A DNA stretch of 64,000 nucleotides from Dehalococcoidia bacterium. Its GTDB lineage: Bacteria; Chloroflexota; Dehalococcoidia; UBA2979. The notes under the pieces are model-generated. The model was not told the origin of the DNA, made no database searches, and worked only from the letters and a program-made list of their open reading frames with translations. Position numbers and translations under genes: made by a program. The stretch covers positions 512,001-576,000 of the forward strand of contig OZ244720.1 of the NCBI GenBank assembly GCA_965219085.1, given 5' to 3'. This document shows, piece by piece, positions 767-51,384 of the stretch. Within the stretch, counting starts at the first letter, position 1; every line of letters begins with the position of its first letter.

Positions 767-2203
767 ATGCTCTCCCGCTCGTTCGTCGTGCTGTGGATTG
801 CGATGGCCGTTGCGGTCATGGGCATCGCCATGGTCTCGCCGTTGCTCCCCGTGTTCGTACGCGAGGAGCTGCACGGCCCCGAGTTTGCCGTAGCGCTCTC
901 GTTCTCGGCGATCGCGATCAGCCAGATCGCCACGTCGCCATTCGTGGGGCGGTTCGCCGACAAGTTCGGGCCGAAGCCGTTCATCGTGCTCGGCTTCTTC
1001 ATCTACGCCGCGGGCGGCGTCGGCTTCATCTTCGCGCAGACGTGGGAGATGGTGATCGTCTTCCGCGTCGTCTCCGGTGTCGGCGCCGCCTCCATGTTCC
1101 CGACGACGATGGCATACGTCGGCCGGCTCGCTCCGCCTGGGTTCGAGGGCCGCTACATGGGCGCGTTCTCGATCTCGTGGATCGCGGGGTTTGGCATCGG
1201 GCCGCTGTTTGGTGGCACCATTCGCGACTTCGTCTCCTCGGACGCCGCGTTCGCGACGATGTCATTCATGCTCTTCGCGGTCGGCGTGGCGGTGTTCCTG
1301 CTGCTGCCCAAGGGCCGGCCCGGTGCCGGCTCCGGGCGCGAGGACGACGAGGAGGTCCTCGAGCCGGGACTGCCGATGATCGAGGTGCTCAAGCGCCCGA
1401 TCGTCCACGCGGCCATCGGTGGGCACATGGTCGTCTCGCTCGGGTGGGGCGCGGGCTTCACGTTCATCGCCGTCTACGTGGTGAGCGACGATGGCCTCGC
1501 GACGGGCAGCGCGACGTTCGCCGGCGTGCTGCTGGCCTCGCGGGCGCTGCTGACGGCGACGGCGCAACTCGTGACGGGGCCGCTCGCCGACAAGATGGAC
1601 CGCGTATTCCTGTCCGTGCTCGGCTTCGGGATCGCGGGAACCGCGCAGTTCTTCGTGCCGGACATACCCGGCGTCAGCGCCACGATCGGGATATTCGGCG
1701 GCGAACTCGTGATTGTGCCCTGGCTGCTGCTGCTCTTCGTCTTCGTGGGACTGGGCGAGGCCATCGAGTTCCCCGCGCAGCAGGCGATCTTCGTCGACGC
1801 CGGCCGCACGGTGGGTATGGGCACGATCATGGGCATCATCCAGACCGCGGGCGGGTTCGGCTTCCTCGCCGGGTCGATGTTCGGTGCGCTTGTCGTGAGC
1901 ATATGGGGGCTCGACGCGGTGTTCCGCTACGCGGGCCTCGCGATGTTCCTCGGCGGCTTCGGTTTCTGGCTGCTCATGCGGCGCGCCAAGCGCGACTTCG
2001 CGATGCTGGACGCGGCCGCCGCGGCCGACCTGCGCACGCGTTTCACGGCCAACAGGCTCGATGGCGCTCGTGCGCTGACCGGCGGCAACGGCGCGCAGCC
2101 CGACGGCGTGCAGCCCGATGGCGTCACGCACCGCGGCATGGCCGACACGCTCCAGGTGGATCGGCCACGGCAACCCGCGGTGGCGGCTGTCGACGGCGAC
2201 TGA
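767..2203 (+). CDS. MFS transporter (DHA1-like) with extended C-terminal tail
   Basis: About 12 hydrophobic segments; motif A GRFADKFGPK; tail contains VTHRGMADT. Confidence 0.9.
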   Translation: MLSRSFVVLWIAMAVAVMGIAMVSPLLPVFVREELHGPEFAVALSFSAIAISQIATSPFVGRFADKFGPKPFIVLGFFIYAAGGVGFIFAQTWEMVIVFRVVSGVGAASMFPTTMAYVGRLAPPGFEGRYMGAFSISWIAGFGIGPLFGGTIRDFVSSDAAFATMSFMLFAVGVAVFLLLPKGRPGAGSGREDDEEVLEPGLPMIEVLKRPIVHAAIGGHMVVSLGWGAGFTFIAVYVVSDDGLATGSATFAGVLLASRALLTATAQLVTGPLADKMDRVFLSVLGFGIAGTAQFFVPDIPGVSATIGIFGGELVIVPWLLLLFVFVGLGEAIEFPAQQAIFVDAGRTVGMGTIMGIIQTAGGFGFLAGSMFGALVVSIWGLDAVFRYAGLAMFLGGFGFWLLMRRAKRDFAMLDAAAAADLRTRFTANRLDGARALTGGNGAQPDGVQPDGVTHRGMADTLQVDRPRQPAVAAVDGD

Positions 2204-2258
2204 GTCGCGTTCTGGCCGCGAGGTGCGCGTTAGCGCCATCCCTTGTCACACTGTCGGC

Positions 2259-3227
2259 GTGATCGGGATCGTACTCGCCAGCGACCAGGGTCTCCTGCAC
2301 GTCCTCCCCGGTGCGGACGCGGAGATGGCGCTGCCCGGCGTGCGCTGCACCTCGCTCGACTACCGCGACGGCGTCGCGATTGCAGCGGCGCCGGAGCGCG
2401 GCGTGTGGATGAACGACGGCGGCGGCTGGGAGCGGGTGTGGGAGGGCAATGCCCACGCCGTGCGCCTCGCCGGCGACGGGGTGTGCTACGCGGCCGAGAC
2501 GCCGCCGCGCCTGCACCGCTCGCGCGACGGCGGCGAGACGTGGGCCGAGCTGCCGAACGTGCCGAGCATCGTGCGGGCCCACAACGCGCGCCGTCCGGGC
2601 GCGCCCCGCAGCGAGGTCGAGATCGTCGGCATCGCGTTCCCGCAGGGGCAGCTACTGCTCGGGATGCGCGGCATGGGCACGTGGCTGTCGCGCGACGGGG
2701 GCCAGTCGTGGATGCGCGGCGATCAAATCGAGCTGTCCGCCCGCTCCGAGCCGCTGCAGGCGGTGGCCCTGGGGGAACACCTCAACGGCATCTGGGACCA
2801 CCAGGAGCGTAACGACCGCCTCTACGCGGCGTCGCGGCGCGGCTTCTTCCGCTCCGATGATGGTGGCTTCACGTGGCAGCGCACCCAGCAGGGCCTCGAC
2901 CGCTTCAACGCAAATGGTGTCGCGGTGCTCCCAGGCACGCCCGACGCGCTGCTGCTCTCGATCGCGTCGAGGGGTGTCGATGCGGAGGACGGGGCCGACG
3001 CGGCGCTGTTCCGCTCGGTCAACGGCGGCCTGATGTGGGATCGGGTGACGCTCGGCGACGAGGACGTGTGGCCACGGCCGCCCCTCGTGAGCGCCGTCAC
3101 CGGCGGCATGGACATGCTGTTCGCGCACGCCGGCGCGAGCATCTGGGCATCGCACGACCGGGGCGCGCGCTGGCTCCCCATCGCCGACGGGCTGCCGCCG
3201 GCGATCGCGATGGTGGCCGCGCTGTAG
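2259..3227 (+). CDS. BNR/Asp-box repeat beta-propeller protein (WD40/YVTN-like)
   Basis: Repeated Asp-boxes SRDGGETW, SRDGGQSW, SDDGGFTW, SVNGGLMW, SHDRGARW; GTG start 6 nt after a CACACT -10-like hexamer. Confidence 0.8.
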   Translation: MIGIVLASDQGLLHVLPGADAEMALPGVRCTSLDYRDGVAIAAAPERGVWMNDGGGWERVWEGNAHAVRLAGDGVCYAAETPPRLHRSRDGGETWAELPNVPSIVRAHNARRPGAPRSEVEIVGIAFPQGQLLLGMRGMGTWLSRDGGQSWMRGDQIELSARSEPLQAVALGEHLNGIWDHQERNDRLYAASRRGFFRSDDGGFTWQRTQQGLDRFNANGVAVLPGTPDALLLSIASRGVDAEDGADAALFRSVNGGLMWDRVTLGDEDVWPRPPLVSAVTGGMDMLFAHAGASIWASHDRGARWLPIADGLPPAIAMVAAL

Positions 3228-3336
3228 GAGCGTGCAACCCTGGACGGTTCCCCTTACTCTGTCCACGCTGCTCCCACGGTAGCTCCCGCCCGTCGCCGAT
3301 CCCACGGCGATCGGACGGAAGGTTGGCGATGCCCTC

Positions 3337-3681
3337 ATGACTGCATTCAACGACGCGACTGCGACAAAGGGCGACCTCCGAGAACTGGAGGCGCGGCTGG
3401 AGTCGCAGACGAAGACCGGCCTCCGGGAACTGGAGGCGCGGTTGGACTCGCAGACAAAGGCGGACCTCCGCGAACTGGAGGTCCGCCTCGAGTCTCAGAC
3501 CAGGGCGGACCTCCGCGACTCGGAGGCACGCCTTGAGTCTCATTTCCGGGACATGTTCGCGACGAAGGCCGATCTCTTCCAGATGGAGACTCGCATTACG
3601 CGCTGGGTGGTGGGTGCGGTCATGGGAAGCATCGGCGCTGCTACGGCGATTGCCTTCGCGCTTGCCCGCTTCGTCTCCTGA
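3337..3681 (+). CDS. DUF1640/CCDC90-like coiled-coil protein with C-terminal membrane anchor
   Basis: ATKGDL/TKADL motifs, 15-aa repeats, C-terminal hydrophobic helix WVVGAVMGSIGAATAIAFALARF. Confidence 0.75.
   Translation: MTAFNDATATKGDLRELEARLESQTKTGLRELEARLDSQTKADLRELEVRLESQTRADLRDSEARLESHFRDMFATKADLFQMETRITRWVVGAVMGSIGAATAIAFALARFVS
3364..3543 (+). repeat. Four in-frame 45-bp tandem repeats (15-aa unit TKADLRELEARLESQ)
   Basis: Units start at 3364, 3409, 3454 and 3499. Confidence 0.9.
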
Positions 3682-3687
3682 CGGGCC

Positions 3688-4620
3688 CTACCCGCGCCCG
3701 CCCTCGAGGAACGTGCGCGGCGCCTCGATCAGCATCGCCTCGATGTCGGACGCCGGGATGCCTGCGTCGGTCAGCTTCGGGCGCAGCTCGTTCGCGATGT
3801 ACGTGAAGTCGCTCGGCGAGTCGTGCGCGCCGTGGCGGCGGAACGAGTTCTGCTCCGGCGCGTAGTCGTGCGCGAGCATGATGTGGTCCGCGCGCCCCTC
3901 GGCGCAGAGCGTGGCGATTGCCGCGATCACCTCGGACTCGATCTCCGGCCGCCAGCGGAAGTGGTCGATGGAGAGGTAGTGCCCCGCCTCGAGCACCTCC
4001 CGCAGGTACTCGACGTCGCCGGTGAAGGAGTGGCCGATGGCGACGAGGTGCGGCGCGACGCCGGTGTCGGCGAAGACGCGCATCTGCTCGCGGCCGATGG
4101 TGTACGGCCCGGTGTGGGTGGTGACGGGGACACCCGTGCGCGTTGCCGCCTCCGCGGCGCCGCGGAGGATGCGCTCCTCCTCGTTGCCGATGCCCGGCGG
4201 GTCGCTGTTCGCGACCTTGATCACGCCCGCGCGGATATCGGTGCCGCCGACGCCGACCTCGATCTCGTGCTGGAAGATGTCGGCGTACTCCACGGCGGTG
4301 GCCGTGCTCAGCGCGCGCGGGTGGTCGAGCCAGATGCCCGTGGCGACGACAACGTTGACGCCCGAGCGCTCCGAGACCGTGCGCATGAGCTCGGGCTGAC
4401 GGCCGAGGTCGGGCGTGGTCACGTCGACGATCGTGCGCACGCCGGCCTCTCGCGCCTCGATGAGTTCGGCGGTGACGTGGTCCAACTCGGCCTCGGTGTC
4501 GAAGAGCCACGGGTAGAACTCGCGCAGGCCCGCCGAGGAGACGAAGAGGTGCTCGTGCCCGTGCGTCAGGCCAAGCTGATCGCCGGGCACCGGCCCGAGC
4601 GCCGTCTGGACATCGACCAT
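3688..4620 (-). CDS. Phosphotriesterase-related protein (amidohydrolase, PTE family)
   Basis: MVDVQTALGPV...LTHGHEHL, DVTTPDLGR, AGVIKVA, TTHT, AIGH, LAHDY; GGAGG RBS before ATG 4620. Confidence 0.9.
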   Translation of the reverse strand: MVDVQTALGPVPGDQLGLTHGHEHLFVSSAGLREFYPWLFDTEAELDHVTAELIEAREAGVRTIVDVTTPDLGRQPELMRTVSERSGVNVVVATGIWLDHPRALSTATAVEYADIFQHEIEVGVGGTDIRAGVIKVANSDPPGIGNEEERILRGAAEAATRTGVPVTTHTGPYTIGREQMRVFADTGVAPHLVAIGHSFTGDVEYLREVLEAGHYLSIDHFRWRPEIESEVIAAIATLCAEGRADHIMLAHDYAPEQNSFRRHGAHDSPSDFTYIANELRPKLTDAGIPASDIEAMLIEAPRTFLEGGRG

Positions 4621-4634
4621 CGCTGCCTCCTGAG

Positions 4635-6086
4635 CTACGCGCCGGAATCCGCCATGCCTGCATGCGTGAGTCGAGCGCGCCCGGCTGCCCCGGGCGCTCC
4701 GGGCGCACCGTCGAGCGAGGAGGGCGCGGATGGCGTCGACGCTGCTGCGGCCAGGGCCGCAACCGCTGCGGGAGCGGGGGCCGTGGGAGACGCGGGGACC
4801 GCCACGGGGCCGAGCGCCCTCGCGGCCTCGATCTCGTTCCAGATCGGCCGCCGCACGAGCACGACGAAGATGGCGCCGGACGCCGCGACGAAGGCGTAGA
4901 TGGTGAAGATTCCCTGGTACGTGCCCGTTTGGTCGAACACGAAGCCCGCCAGGACCGGGGCGACGATGGTGACGGGCGTCTGGAAACTGCTCGCCAGCCC
5001 TCGCAGTGTCGCGAAGCGCAGCGTGCCGAAGTAGTCGGCGATGAGCGTCATCTGCACCACGAGCCACGCGGCGTGCCCGAAGCCGAACGCGGCGTAGTAA
5101 AACGGGATGAGCCACAGCCGGCCCGGCTCGAGCTGCACGAACATCAGCATCCCGATGCCCTGGAGCAGGAAGCCGAGCGCGTAGACGCGTCGCCGCCCGA
5201 GCGCGTCGGCGATCCAGCCGGCGAAGATTCGTAGCAAGACCTGGAACGCGCCGTAGAACGCGACGACGAGCGCCGCGCTGCCGGTCGAGAACCCCGCGTG
5301 CTCCAGGTGCGGCACCTGGAGCACGACCCACGCGACGATCGCGAACGTGCCGCAGGCGTTGGCCAGCGCGAGCAGGTAGAAGGCCGGGATCCGCAGCCCG
5401 CCGCCCACCGTGAACCCGGTGAGTGTCGGCATCGCGATCGGTGCGCCCGAGGGCTCCTCGGGCGCTTCGCCGTCCGGCAGGTAGCCGTAGGGTTGCGGCC
5501 GGTTGCGCAGCAGCAGCGCGAGCGGCACGCCGAGCGTGAAGACGATCGCGGCCGCGATCAGGAGCGTCTCGCGCCAGCCGAACCAGCTCACGAACAGCGC
5601 GACGACCGGGACGACGAAGTAGCCCGCGCCGTTGCCCGCGTTGAGCACGCCCATCGCGCGGGCGCGCTTGCGATCGAACCAGTTCATGACGGCGGCGGAG
5701 AACGCCATCAGCGAGCCGATGCTGTTGCCCGTCGCCATGAGCAAGCTGGCAAGGTAGTAGACCTCGAGCGAGCGCGCCTGCGAGAAGAGCACCAGCCCGC
5801 CGCTGAGCACGATCACCCCGGCGACGGCCATCTTGCGCGGGCCCAGCTTGTCGAGCATGAAGCCGGAGATGGGCGCCACCAGTCCCTGCTCGAGGCTCCC
5901 CAGGGAGAAGCCGAGCGAGATCGCGGCGATGCTCCAGCCCAGCTCGTCCCGCATCGGGCCGATGAAGACGCCGAAGCCGAAGACGGCGATGCCGATGGTG
6001 ACGAAGTTGCTGAGGGCGCCGCCGTAGGCGATGTACCAGCCGTAGAAGAAACGTTGGCGCGGTCGGGCCGCTGCGGCGTTGGTCAT
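4635..6086 (-). CDS. MFS transporter (OFA/MCT-like) with C-terminal tail
   Basis: FFYGWYI N-terminus, GFMLDKLGPR, NWFDRKRARA, ADYFG; tail ends LTHAGMADSGA. Confidence 0.9.
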   Translation of the reverse strand: MTNAAAARPRQRFFYGWYIAYGGALSNFVTIGIAVFGFGVFIGPMRDELGWSIAAISLGFSLGSLEQGLVAPISGFMLDKLGPRKMAVAGVIVLSGGLVLFSQARSLEVYYLASLLMATGNSIGSLMAFSAAVMNWFDRKRARAMGVLNAGNGAGYFVVPVVALFVSWFGWRETLLIAAAIVFTLGVPLALLLRNRPQPYGYLPDGEAPEEPSGAPIAMPTLTGFTVGGGLRIPAFYLLALANACGTFAIVAWVVLQVPHLEHAGFSTGSAALVVAFYGAFQVLLRIFAGWIADALGRRRVYALGFLLQGIGMLMFVQLEPGRLWLIPFYYAAFGFGHAAWLVVQMTLIADYFGTLRFATLRGLASSFQTPVTIVAPVLAGFVFDQTGTYQGIFTIYAFVAASGAIFVVLVRRPIWNEIEAARALGPVAVPASPTAPAPAAVAALAAAASTPSAPSSLDGAPGAPGAAGRARLTHAGMADSGA

Positions 6087-6161
6087 CGGCTCTCCCTGAC
6101 GCGCGCCGTGCGCACGGCGCGCGCGCGGCCTGCGCCGAGTATAGGCGGGTCGCGAGGAGCG

Positions 6162-7664
6162 TTAGCGCTGTTGGGCCGGAACGGTGGGATTCTGGCCCAC
6201 GGGGGGGGCGTCGCCGCCGTTCGCCGATGCGGGGACAGGCCAGGCGCTCTCGCGCCACTGGACGGTCTCGGCCATGCCGGCGTGGGTGACGCCGTTCGCG
6301 TACGCGCCGTTGGCGCCGTTGGCGCCGGCGCCGTTGGTGGCAAGGGCGGCCAGCCCGTGCGGGGCGACGGGTACGGGCATCGGCGCCGCGGCCGCCGACT
6401 CGGGGAGCTCGGGCTTCTTCGCGAAGGCGAAGAAGACTCCGCCCGACAGCGCGAGGATCGCGAGGATGATGAAGCCGCGCTGGTAGGAGCCTGTGAGGTC
6501 GTAGGAGATGCCTGCCACGACTGGGCCGATGATCATGCCGGCCATCATCACCATCGACGAGAAGCCCATGATCTTGCCGAAGGACTGGCGCCCGAAGTAG
6601 TCGGCGCGCATCGCCTGGATGAGTGGACCGCGGGTGCCCATCGCAAGCCCGTTGATGACCACGAACCCGATGACCATCACGACGTTGAACGAGAACGCCA
6701 GCAACAGCATCGCAACCGTGTGCCCGCACATCGCGATGATGATGACCATACGCTTGTTGAGGCGATCTCCAAGGATGCCGCCGATGACGACCTGACCGAT
6801 GACCATAAAGGCGGTCATGAGCGCTGACATCAGCCCGAAGAACGCGAGCGAATACCCGAGGCCCAGCGTGAGGTGCGACGCGAAGTACACCATCACCGCG
6901 CCGATCACGAGCAGCGAAGAACTGTGGCCCAGCGCGATCAGCCAGAAGGCGCTGGTGCGCAACGCCTGGGTGGTGGTGAAGTTCACCTCAGGCGGTTGCT
7001 CGTCCCCGTGGCCGGGCAAGTCGCCGTCCGGGAGCATGCCGTGGTCCTCAGGACGGTGCCGTACGATCGCCGCGAGCGGGAGGCCAATGACGAGGACGAA
7101 GATGCCCGAGGCGGCTGCCATGCCGCGCCAGCCGAGACTCTCCAGTAAGGCAACGACGCCGGGTTGCACCAGGCCACCAGCGGCGAACCCGAGCGAGACC
7201 AACGCCAGCGCGAGCGCGCGCCGCTTGTTGAACCAATTAACAACCGCGACGGTAACCGGTAAGAACGAGCCGAGCACCGAACCGAGGGCGATCAACAGGT
7301 ACGCCAGGTAGAACGTCAGGATCGAGTTGATCTGGCTCAGCGCCAGGAACCCCAGCGCGAAGATCACGAGGCCCACCATCATCACCCTGCGCGGCCCGAA
7401 GCGGTCGATCGCCCAGCCCTCGATGGGACCGAGCAAGCCGCTCTCGACGCGCTGCAGGGCGAAGGCCAGGCCGAAGGTGGCTTGGCTCCAGCCGAAATCC
7501 TCCTCGAGCAGCACCACGTAGGCACCGAACGAGTGGAAGACAAGAGCCCCGTTGAAGGTGTTCACGATGAACCCGGAGCCGACGATCCACCAGCCGAAGA
7601 AGATGCGCGAGCCGCGCTCAGTCACGGCCTGCTGCTGCTCGCGGAAGTTCGTCATCGCCGTCAT
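6162..7664 (-). CDS. MFS transporter (OFA/MCT-like) with C-terminal tail
   Basis: IFFGWWIV, GWAIDRFGPRR, NWFNKRRA, ADYFGR; start at 7664 or 7655; tail contains VTHAGMAET. Confidence 0.9.
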   Translation of the reverse strand: MTAMTNFREQQQAVTERGSRIFFGWWIVGSGFIVNTFNGALVFHSFGAYVVLLEEDFGWSQATFGLAFALQRVESGLLGPIEGWAIDRFGPRRVMMVGLVIFALGFLALSQINSILTFYLAYLLIALGSVLGSFLPVTVAVVNWFNKRRALALALVSLGFAAGGLVQPGVVALLESLGWRGMAAASGIFVLVIGLPLAAIVRHRPEDHGMLPDGDLPGHGDEQPPEVNFTTTQALRTSAFWLIALGHSSSLLVIGAVMVYFASHLTLGLGYSLAFFGLMSALMTAFMVIGQVVIGGILGDRLNKRMVIIIAMCGHTVAMLLLAFSFNVVMVIGFVVINGLAMGTRGPLIQAMRADYFGRQSFGKIMGFSSMVMMAGMIIGPVVAGISYDLTGSYQRGFIILAILALSGGVFFAFAKKPELPESAAAAPMPVPVAPHGLAALATNGAGANGANGAYANGVTHAGMAETVQWRESAWPVPASANGGDAPPVGQNPTVPAQQR

Positions 7665-49704: not shown

Positions 49705-51384
49705 TTGACCAACGAAGCTCCACTTGCGGCTGCGCCGCTCGAAGTCGACGCGCGAGCGCGGCGGCTGATCGTCGTCGGCGCGATGCTCGCGCTCTTCCTC
49801 GCCGCCATCGACGCCACGATCGTGGGGACGGCCGTCCCGAGCATCGTCGGCGACCTCGGCGGCATCGACCTGCTGGCGTGGGTGTTCACCGCCTACCTGC
49901 TCACGTCGACGGTCACGCTGCCGCTCGCGGGGAAGTTCGGGGACCTGTTTGGCCGCAAGCCGCTGTTCCTGGTGGCGGTCGTGGCCTTCGTCATTGCCTC
50001 GGTAGCCGCGGGCCTGGCGCCCTCGATGGAGGCGCTGATCGGCGCGCGCGCGCTGCAGGGCATCGGCGCGGGCCTCATCTTTGCGACGACCATGGCGGTC
50101 ATCGCCGACCTGTACTCGCCGCTCGAACGCGGGCGCGTGCAGGGCGCGGTCGCCGGCGTGTTCGGGATCGCGTCGGTGATTGGGCCGACGCTGGGCGGCT
50201 GGATCACCGACGTATCGACATGGCGGTGGATCTTCCTGATCAACCTGCCGATCGGCATCGTCGCGTTCGTCGCGATCCTCGTGCTGATGCCGTGGACGCG
50301 CCTGGCGCGCGCGGGCGAGGCGCGCATCGACTTCCTCGGCGCGATCCTGCTCAGCGCGGCGGTCGTGCCCTTCCTGCTGGCGATGGTGTGGGGCGGCGAG
50401 CGCTACGAGTGGCTCGGCCCCGAGACGCTGGGCCTGATCGCGTTCTCGCTGGTCGCGCTCGCCGCGTTCGTGGCCGTCGAGGCGCGCGTGCCGGAGCCGC
50501 TCGTGCCGCTGTTCCTGTTCCGCAACCGGGTGTTCGCCGTGTCGGCGGTGCTCCTGCTCCTGACCGGCGCGGGGATGTTCGGCGCGCTGACGCTGCTCCC
50601 GCTCTACCTGCAGGGCGTCACGGGCGCGTCGGCGCGGCTCTCCGGGACGCTGATGACGCCGATGATGCTCGCGATCCCGGTCGCAGCGGCCTTCTCGGGA
50701 CAGATGATGAGCCGTACCGGCCGCTACAAGTACCTGCTCATCGGCGGCGTCATCGTGATGTCGGCGGGCATGTTCTCGTTCGCCACCGTCGACGCGTCGA
50801 CGGGCCGGTTCGAGGCGATCCTGCGGATGATCGTCGTGACGCTCGGCCTCGGCGTGACGCTGCCGCTGCTCCAGGTGGTGGTGCAAAACGCCGTGCCGTT
50901 CAGCGTCGTCGGCGTCGCCACCGCGAGCGTGCAGTTCTTCCGGCAGATCGGCGGTACGCTCGGCGTGGCGGTGCTGACCGGCATCATGGTCGGGCGATTC
51001 CGCGACGGTCTCAGCGAGGTCGCCGCGGGCCTCCCCGCCGTGCTCAACAACCCGAGCGCGCTGCTCAACGAGAACGAGGTCGCCGGCCTCCAGCAACGCT
51101 ACGAGGCGACAGCCGGCGAGGCCGCACCGGCGTTCGAGGTGGTCCTGGCGGCGGCTCGCGTCTCGCTGTCCGAGGCGATCGCGCTGGTATTCGTCATTGG
51201 CGCGGTGATCGTGGCATGCTCGCTCGTGGCGGCGTTCGTGCTGCCCGAACTGGAGCTGGAGAGCGCCTCGCCCGCCGAGCTGGCTCGACGCGAGGCGGCG
51301 GCCAGCGCCGCGCCGGAGCCGACCCACGTCGCGATGCACATCGTCGATAGGCCTGTGGGAGACGAAGGAGGACAGCATGCATGA
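49705..51384 (+). CDS. DHA2 (EmrB/QacA-type) MFS transporter
   Basis: DATIVGTA, GKFGDLFGRK, WRWIFLINLP, FFRQIGG. Confidence 0.92.
   Translation: MTNEAPLAAAPLEVDARARRLIVVGAMLALFLAAIDATIVGTAVPSIVGDLGGIDLLAWVFTAYLLTSTVTLPLAGKFGDLFGRKPLFLVAVVAFVIASVAAGLAPSMEALIGARALQGIGAGLIFATTMAVIADLYSPLERGRVQGAVAGVFGIASVIGPTLGGWITDVSTWRWIFLINLPIGIVAFVAILVLMPWTRLARAGEARIDFLGAILLSAAVVPFLLAMVWGGERYEWLGPETLGLIAFSLVALAAFVAVEARVPEPLVPLFLFRNRVFAVSAVLLLLTGAGMFGALTLLPLYLQGVTGASARLSGTLMTPMMLAIPVAAAFSGQMMSRTGRYKYLLIGGVIVMSAGMFSFATVDASTGRFEAILRMIVVTLGLGVTLPLLQVVVQNAVPFSVVGVATASVQFFRQIGGTLGVAVLTGIMVGRFRDGLSEVAAGLPAVLNNPSALLNENEVAGLQQRYEATAGEAAPAFEVVLAAARVSLSEAIALVFVIGAVIVACSLVAAFVLPELELESASPAELARREAAASAAPEPTHVAMHIVDRPVGDEGGQHA

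Follow-up and report, generated by a model that had tools for sequence, protein, structure and literature searches.

A 64 kb window of the Dehalococcoidia genome G000 (the window being the whole stretch of DNA analysed here; G000 itself is assembled as one 3.3 Mb contig of 70% GC) encodes four transporters of the major facilitator superfamily (MFS) whose C-terminal tails carry a short peptide motif or a variant of it. The genes and motif copies are as follows, lengths being given in amino acids (aa).

767..2203, + strand: MFS transporter, DHA1-like, 478 aa, its C-tail long and of low complexity (Pfam MFS_1, E 1.6e-50)
2123..2149, + strand: motif copy 1, VTHRGMADT, core THRGM at 2126-2140, in the C-tail of the DHA1-like MFS
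4635..6086, - strand: MFS transporter, OFA/monocarboxylate-like, 483 aa, its C-tail disordered and rich in Ala and Pro (MFS_1 above the Pfam threshold)
4644..4670, - strand: motif copy 2, LTHAGMADS, core THAGM at 4667-4653, in the C-tail of the 4635..6086 MFS
6162..7664, - strand: MFS transporter, OFA/monocarboxylate-like, 500 aa, its C-tail rich in Asn, Gly, and Ala (MFS_1 above the Pfam threshold)
6264..6290, - strand: motif copy 3, VTHAGMAET, core THAGM at 6287-6273, in the C-tail of the 6162..7664 MFS
49783..51384, + strand (start codon approximate): fourth MFS transporter, DHA2/EmrB-like (TIGR00711, 278 bits against a cut-off of 230)
51322..51336, + strand: variant motif, THVAM, in the C-tail of the DHA2/EmrB-like MFS (pattern match)

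The original prediction had described copies 1 to 3 as a nine-residue C-terminal motif on three MFS genes of different subfamilies. The coordinates and codons of all three copies were reproduced, with the minus-strand copies reading from 4670 to 4644 and from 6290 to 6264, and their hosts combine MFS_1 scores over the Pfam cut-off with a helical two-bundle core, the DHA1-like protein sharing only 21-27% identity with the two OFA/monocarboxylate transporter-like proteins. The motif is therefore real as described, except that its core comprises five residues, that it occupies N-tails and central loops as well as C-tails, and that it extends to more genes. None of the three hosts reaches an NCBIfam cut-off that would name a substrate, the top NCBIfam matches of the 767..2203 gene being drug:H+ antiporter families, every one below its cut-off. 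The fourth MFS was not among the genes originally noted, and its THVAM variant has no counterpart in the G014 orthologue.

Genome-wide, the motif is enriched in MFS proteins beyond chance. Among 2663 genes predicted in G000 by a codon model, 46 MFS proteins were assigned by Pfam search, with two Pfam matches lacking a called gene dropped. A strict pattern allowing only glycine at the fourth position, [TS]H.G[MLIF], was identified in 19 of these 46 proteins, compared with 0 of 107 other proteins with at least 6 hydrophobic segments, 8 of 660 with 1-5 segments, and 19 of 1850 soluble proteins. Shuffled sequences, which the original prediction had proposed as the yardstick for enrichment, bear it out: 2000 shuffles of the MFS set gave a mean of 0.71 and a maximum of 5 against the 19 observed. 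The enrichment is also not explained by tail length, since 20 of 75 MFS tails (3261 residues) gave matches whereas none of 107 tails of other multi-pass proteins did so across a similar total (3645 residues). The longer form TH.GMA[DE] has four matches in a six-frame translation of the 3.3 Mb genome, every one in an MFS tail, and TH.GM occurs in 10 of the 2663 predicted proteins, 9 of them MFS. Furthermore, a blind gapped-word search of MFS tails ranked TH..M and H.GM first in both G000 and G014, with no such word among the top matches in G006 or G004. Relaxing the core to [TS]-H-x-[GA]-[MLIF] yielded 25 instances in 24 of the 46 MFS proteins, which carry it in the C-tail (14 proteins), the N-tail (8), or the central loop (2); one MFS tail holds two tandem copies. 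Also identified was an MFS gene apparently split by a frameshift in this assembly (G000:C1:1683551-1684796), whose C-tail still carries THALM, as do its intact relatives (P0310, P0350, and L103). Outside the MFS, two helicase-like proteins (G000:C1:558116-560476 and 574854-578237) contain HAGM and HGGM within folded domains; these presumably resemble the SF2 helicase phosphate-binding loop, a likeness that is probably coincidental.

Pooling of 56 distinct instances gave the consensus [VL]-[TS]-H-x-G-[ML]-x-[DE], in which histidine is the only fully invariant residue. Thr/Ser precedes it in 56 of 56 (in part by definition of the pattern), Gly is found in 47, the hydrophobic position is Met in 40, Leu in 10, Ile in 4, and Phe in 2, and Asp/Glu stands two residues past the core in 31. 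The motif is therefore short and degenerate, with [TS], H, [GA], and the hydrophobic residue fixed and the middle position free. Its placement is variable, lying between 7 and 149 residues from the nearest helix called by hydropathy, and close paralogues can carry it at opposite ends (516635 at the C-terminus and 3144302 at the N-terminus; 1338307 at the N-terminus and 2764719 at the C-terminus). Identical variants recur across unrelated MFS subfamilies, THGGM in three and THRGM in two, and the 24 hosts span deep subfamilies and all three locations, indicating convergent recurrence in non-orthologous proteins. The N-terminus, C-terminus, and middle loop of MFS proteins are all cytoplasmic. For MelB, this arrangement of termini and loop is described in the accessible text of PMC10942615. 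The AlphaFold model of the 4635 gene product comprises an MFS helical core and a coil tail (pLDDT <50 at residues 466-483), and that of the N-terminal copy in P0017 places the motif at the start of a low-confidence helix (pLDDT 48-63) with Thr at the cap, although such single-chain models are weak evidence on the motif because few alignment rows cover the tail. Together with low-complexity linkers that vary by insertions and deletions, these features correspond to a disordered location.

The motif residues are more conserved than their surroundings. In the 4635 gene, compared across seven genomes, none of 84 codon pairs at the T, H, G, and M positions differ in amino acid and 29% differ synonymously, while 49% of linker pairs and 8% of core pairs differ in amino acid. 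Similarly, the 6162 gene shows 0 of 84 amino-acid differences at these positions, with no synonymous change at the four codons, compared with 35% in the linker and 6% in the core; codon pairs in both comparisons are not independent. Selection on the peptide, as originally proposed, is thus upheld in two genes. Of 16 orthologue pairs between G000 and G014, the alignment shows all four positions retained in 14, one has the motif in a misaligned position, and one lacks it. Codon bias does not differ between motif-positive and motif-negative MFS genes (p 0.70).

Surveys of related genomes confined the motif to one branch of a single genus, represented by seven motif-positive genomes (G000, G003, G007, G008, G014, G016, and G018) in a genus set of 19. 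Matches to the back-translated pattern numbered 10-16 in these seven and 1-8 in the other 34 of 41 genomes. When 99 genomes of the order were searched, the same seven had 17-21 matches, and the only other high counts were those of G052 and G096. By coordinates, 1 of the 17 matches in G052 lies inside an MFS match, in the region of the first helix, and the 10 of its 17 sites inspected all fall in unrelated proteins or shadow frames; 1 of 19 in G096 lies about 100 codons upstream of an MFS match. Neither excess could thus be traced to MFS tails. G087 has 10 pattern matches, which were not compared with MFS positions. When each genome was represented by its best 30 MFS loci, 17 of 32 open reading frames (ORFs) matched in G014, 1 of 29 in G006 (a loose match in a loop), and 4 of 29 in G004, none of these in a tail. 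A closer profile of the motif-negative genome G006, the nearest one outside the branch, covering 2.4 of 2.49 Mb, gave a single loose match among 32 MFS ORFs. Of 31 orthologue pairs between G000 and G006, 19 are motif-positive in G000 (two of the 19 genes sharing one G006 partner), and none of the corresponding G006 proteins carries the motif. Motif-free orthologues outside one branch accord with the lineage-specific short linear motif on a flexible tether that had been envisaged, and they retain 62-85% identity to the motif-bearing proteins.

Phylogenetic trees of database proteins, built by a quick method and rooted at the midpoint, grouped, for each window gene, the orthologues that carry the motif into a single clade whose sisters are motif-free (SH-aLRT 98-99), the motif having been gained on the same branch in all three window orthogroups. 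For the 767 gene, 11 of the 14 closest database proteins have the motif, with the residue after His varying (R, H, or Y), 3 have it deleted, and the outgroups lack it; for the 6162 gene, the motif is present in the 7 closest proteins and in 0 of the next 17.

Similar segments were also found in three non-MFS proteins. An amino-acid ABC ATPase (G000:C1:289184-289972, L289-L291) starts MTTHAG[VA] in all 4 motif-positive genomes compared and in neither of the 2 negative ones (G006 and G004), suggesting a reader whose range extends beyond the MFS fold. The C-terminal extension of a ParA-family protein (G000:C1:1323191-1324009, L293-L297) contains SHGG[YF] in G000, G007, G008, and G014 and SNGGY in G018, and is absent from G004 and G006 (overall 4 of 5 motif-positive, 0 of 2 negative). 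A 7TM-HD (PgpH-like) protein (G000:C1:1490147-1492342, L285-L288) ends LTH[DR]GA in G000 and G018, an ending absent in G014, G008, G006, and G004 (2 of 4 motif-positive, 0 of 2 negative). These patterns, which point to gains by the three proteins in the motif branch, are no more than suggestive.

Given these features, we favour, with modest confidence, the interpretation that the motif is a docking tag read by one shared cytoplasmic protein. The recurrence of variants across subfamilies and the freedom of placement point to a single external pocket rather than many, while the motif's turnover and its placement in disordered segments agree with the model of ex nihilo motif birth set out in the accessible part of PMC4654906. 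Under such a mechanism, a binding pocket would have arisen in the lineage first, after which the motif would have been born repeatedly in disordered segments of many paralogues, mostly through point mutation and small insertions, with copying between neighbouring genes perhaps sometimes contributing to its spread. Thr/Ser would cap a short helix, and the pocket would receive His and the Met/Leu anchor; the tethered partner might then affect the transporter in a way resembling inducer exclusion, and a shared reader could switch or throttle roughly half of all MFS transport in the cell together. That a Dehalococcoidia lineage lacking the phosphoenolpyruvate (PEP)-dependent phosphotransferase system (PTS) evolved a global transport switch in this way, a new reader recruiting about two dozen MFS transporters together with an ABC ATPase as a five-residue tag arose repeatedly within the species divergence of one genus, is a tentative proposal. 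It is possible, if rather doubtful, that the reader controls transport activity rather than stability or location.

Several observations weigh against a shared reader of this kind. A generic reader does not explain the near-exclusive MFS range, with 0 of 107 other multi-pass proteins matching, and none of nine reader candidates searched across genomes tracks the seven motif-positive genomes. The count of 24 MFS proteins depends on the relaxed pattern, which was widened post hoc after the data were inspected, and the profile in depth covers a single motif-negative genome, G006 (reduced, with 2.4 of 2.49 Mb covered). The non-MFS copies were chosen from 16 loose matches and lie in terminal segments that are fairly conserved throughout. 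Three close relatives have deleted the motif from the 767 orthologue, so single copies are dispensable, and one other orthogroup has THTGM also outside the group of G000 and G006 (P0021 and P0025), in degenerate form in P0053. Because of these deletions and of THTGM outside that group, the history is not one clean gain, and one paralogue may have held the motif earlier.

The candidate readers that were rejected differ in their distribution. ClpS, P-II, and CoA_binding_2 proteins are each present in 19 of 19 genus genomes, PP2C in 18 of 19, and HPr in 0 of 19 (control rings were found in 7 of 14). Hanks kinases are patchy, occurring in 7 of 19 genomes. A 73-aa zinc-ribbon protein was detected in 17 of 41 genomes, including 11 motif-negative genomes of the genus; its gene (G000:C1:2530999-2531220, L119:2873-3094) lies just upstream of a motif-bearing MFS gene and occurs in 17 of the 19 genomes of the genus and 0 of 22 others. 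A second Usp-domain protein (G000:C1:3159679-3160821) is a weak lead, being present in the seven motif-positive genomes and in G006, with one Usp protein only in the other 11 genus genomes. A further weak lead, the BNR propeller, lies in the window, among the neighbours of the motif-bearing transporters.

2259..3227, + strand: BNR/Vps10-type beta-propeller, no obvious signal peptide by eye (Pfam)
3688..4620, - strand: phosphotriesterase (PTE)-family hydrolase (Pfam PTE, E 1.5e-57)

The propeller is a duplicate distinguished from its ancestral paralogue by an 8-residue and a 5-residue insertion. All 7 motif-positive genomes have a close copy, as does motif-negative G006, where, as in G000, it adjoins the DHA1-like MFS gene; the other 11 genus genomes possess only the ancestral paralogue (~45% identity). 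The PTE-family gene lies directly downstream of the two OFA-like MFS genes and has a 70% orthologue in motif-negative G006. Between the propeller and PTE genes, a 114-aa ORF (window 3337-3681) comprises repeated coiled-coil units and a hydrophobic C-terminal segment; a Pfam search of it gave no match, and many similar short ORFs are dispersed over the genome. Elsewhere, a cluster beside a motif-bearing MFS gene (G000:C1:3226375-3230430) encodes, by eye, proteasome-type protease, transglutaminase-like, alpha-E, and circularly permuted ATP-grasp proteins, and is common to G006, so that it does not track the motif. After the G006 gene content was subtracted from that of G000, 278 single-copy, native-looking candidates remained, a number too large to resolve. 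A motif profile of 20 rows, searched against 1.84 billion representatives, had three matches, all repeat-driven or unrelated, the motif being too short for this type of search, and an ESM Atlas search with the tail returned no usable match.

Among alternatives to a docked reader, the motif might be a covalent modification site, with one enzyme phosphorylating its His or Thr/Ser so that charge beside the membrane tunes each transporter. The invariant His and the Thr/Ser before it would suit such a site, as would the likeness to the His loops of the genome's pyruvate phosphate dikinase (PPDK; TSHAAV) and succinyl-CoA synthetase (GHAGA), whose His residues are presumably phosphorylated. However, the enzymes that might act on it were not seen to follow the motif: HPr was found nowhere in the genus set, PP2C is nearly universal in it, PPDK and NDK are common to motif-negative G006, and Hanks kinases were detected in 3 of 7 motif-positive genomes (the four without being fragmented assemblies, 90-92% complete) and in 4 of 12 motif-negative ones. 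In addition, the Thr may merely cap a helix, as modelled in P0017. We therefore regard a modification site as unlikely. It is distinctly unlikely that the motif folds back on a surface common to the MFS fold, whether on its own transporter or on one beside it, serving as a latch or a hook for oligomerisation and requiring no other protein. Such folding back would account for the restriction to MFS tails and not to other multi-pass tails of similar residue total, and all three motif locations could reach the cytoplasmic face. Yet variants are not sorted by subfamily, no parallel core substitution accompanies motif gain in 11 motif-positive pairs, a similar segment occurs on the ABC ATPase, and the motif is of low confidence in both single-chain AlphaFold models, weak as these are in the tail. 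A co-fold of the MFS core with the tail peptide (score 0.00, mark 0.32) counts neither way, its controls not having been folded.

Direct binding of a metal ion or proton by the His, making the tails pH or metal sensors or clustering transporters through shared metal ions, is quite improbable, and the His/Met metal-binding switch raised by the original prediction is not sustained. The invariance of the His and the frequent acidic residue past the core are compatible with it, whereas non-ligating Leu, Ile, or Phe replaces Met in 16 of 56 pooled instances, so that no Met/Cys ligand is conserved, the tails are not His-rich, and metal binding would not need the fixed order Thr/Ser-His-x-Gly-hydrophobic. 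One His per tail also makes for weak metal binding on general chemical grounds. Finally, the motif could be a functionless footprint of a DNA element or of recent gene-to-gene copying, a claim that is largely refuted and in our estimation highly improbable. In its favour, the motif of the 767 gene arrived within an inserted segment, the tails of the 767 and 6162 genes are alignable beyond the motif, and P0247, a basal orthologue of the 6162 gene, has a C-terminal end resembling that of the 4635 gene. Against it, MFS genes contain 24 in-frame matches and 2 in the other five frames, codon identity between instances at shared residues is 0.66 compared with 0.59 expected from codon usage, one orthologue set varies synonymously without amino-acid change, and a mobile element would not be restricted to MFS genes. 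Frame specificity and codon identity near expectation make a DNA repeat unlikely. The recent shared DNA insertion that the original prediction had weighed against itself is hence improbable as a repeat, while the tail alignment and the P0247 end leave older copying between neighbouring genes as one possible route of motif spread.

One motif occurs on about half of a transporter superfamily on a single short branch, with motif-free orthologues (62-85% identity) providing natural controls. Motif birth and post-translational control of uptake in MFS-rich Dehalococcoidia thereby become directly testable, with a short peptide as bait, and a reader, should one exist, would be an undescribed regulator. 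Such a system would amount to a eukaryote-style motif network caught just after its formation in a bacterium, and to a tag that could be moved between transporters to switch them. Control of bacterial transporters usually falls to transcription or to a small number of dedicated partners. In P-II-family control (GlnK-AmtB and SbtB-SbtA), a transporter is blocked by a small soluble protein that docks on its cytoplasmic side, and these are one-to-one pairs, usually co-encoded. In contrast to such control, none of the three Amt-like proteins of G000 (assigned by eye) carries the motif. Elements of the Rickettsia-palindromic-element type are in-frame coding repeats or mobile DNA, for which homology of the copies at the DNA level and insertion into gene classes of unrelated kinds would be expected; the motif copies instead show codon identity near the codon-usage expectation, are in frame, and are found almost only in MFS genes.

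A parallel in gene content is the expansion of MFS paralogues in SAR202 Dehalococcoidia, for which the accessible text of PMC10444878 gives about 40 or more per genome and 42 in JH545, similar to the 46 in G000; no tail motif or shared post-translational control is described in that part of the account. [quoted passage not shown] The present motif likewise involves MFS transporters and an ABC ATPase, both of which EIIA-Glc controls from the cytoplasm, though here this is known from sequence only. Conversely, according to the same part of PMC10942615, the implicated MelB site comprises three residues on one face of the tail helix and not a movable linear motif. A further difference from PTS inducer exclusion is the absence of HPr from the 19 genomes (EIIA was not searched for); the only PEP-utiliser His motif found in G000 belongs to a 907-aa PPDK-like protein.

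A close likeness is to short linear motifs, for which the accessible text of PMC4654906 describes ex nihilo birth and gives the sliding-clamp binding motif and RNase E motifs as bacterial examples. As described there, such motifs are compact, degenerate, and disordered, occur on non-orthologous proteins, and undergo gain, loss, and turnover among paralogues, as does the motif reported here; they are also thought, in the same text, to be less used in bacteria than in eukaryotes. Unlike known examples, this motif is concentrated on one transporter superfamily in one branch of a bacterial genus. A literature search for the motif or its context, with supplements and most subscription journals outside its scope, found no description. 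Thus, while the short linear motif as a kind is known, novelty appears to lie in this particular motif, in the way it is concentrated on a single transporter superfamily, and in its having originated within one genus.

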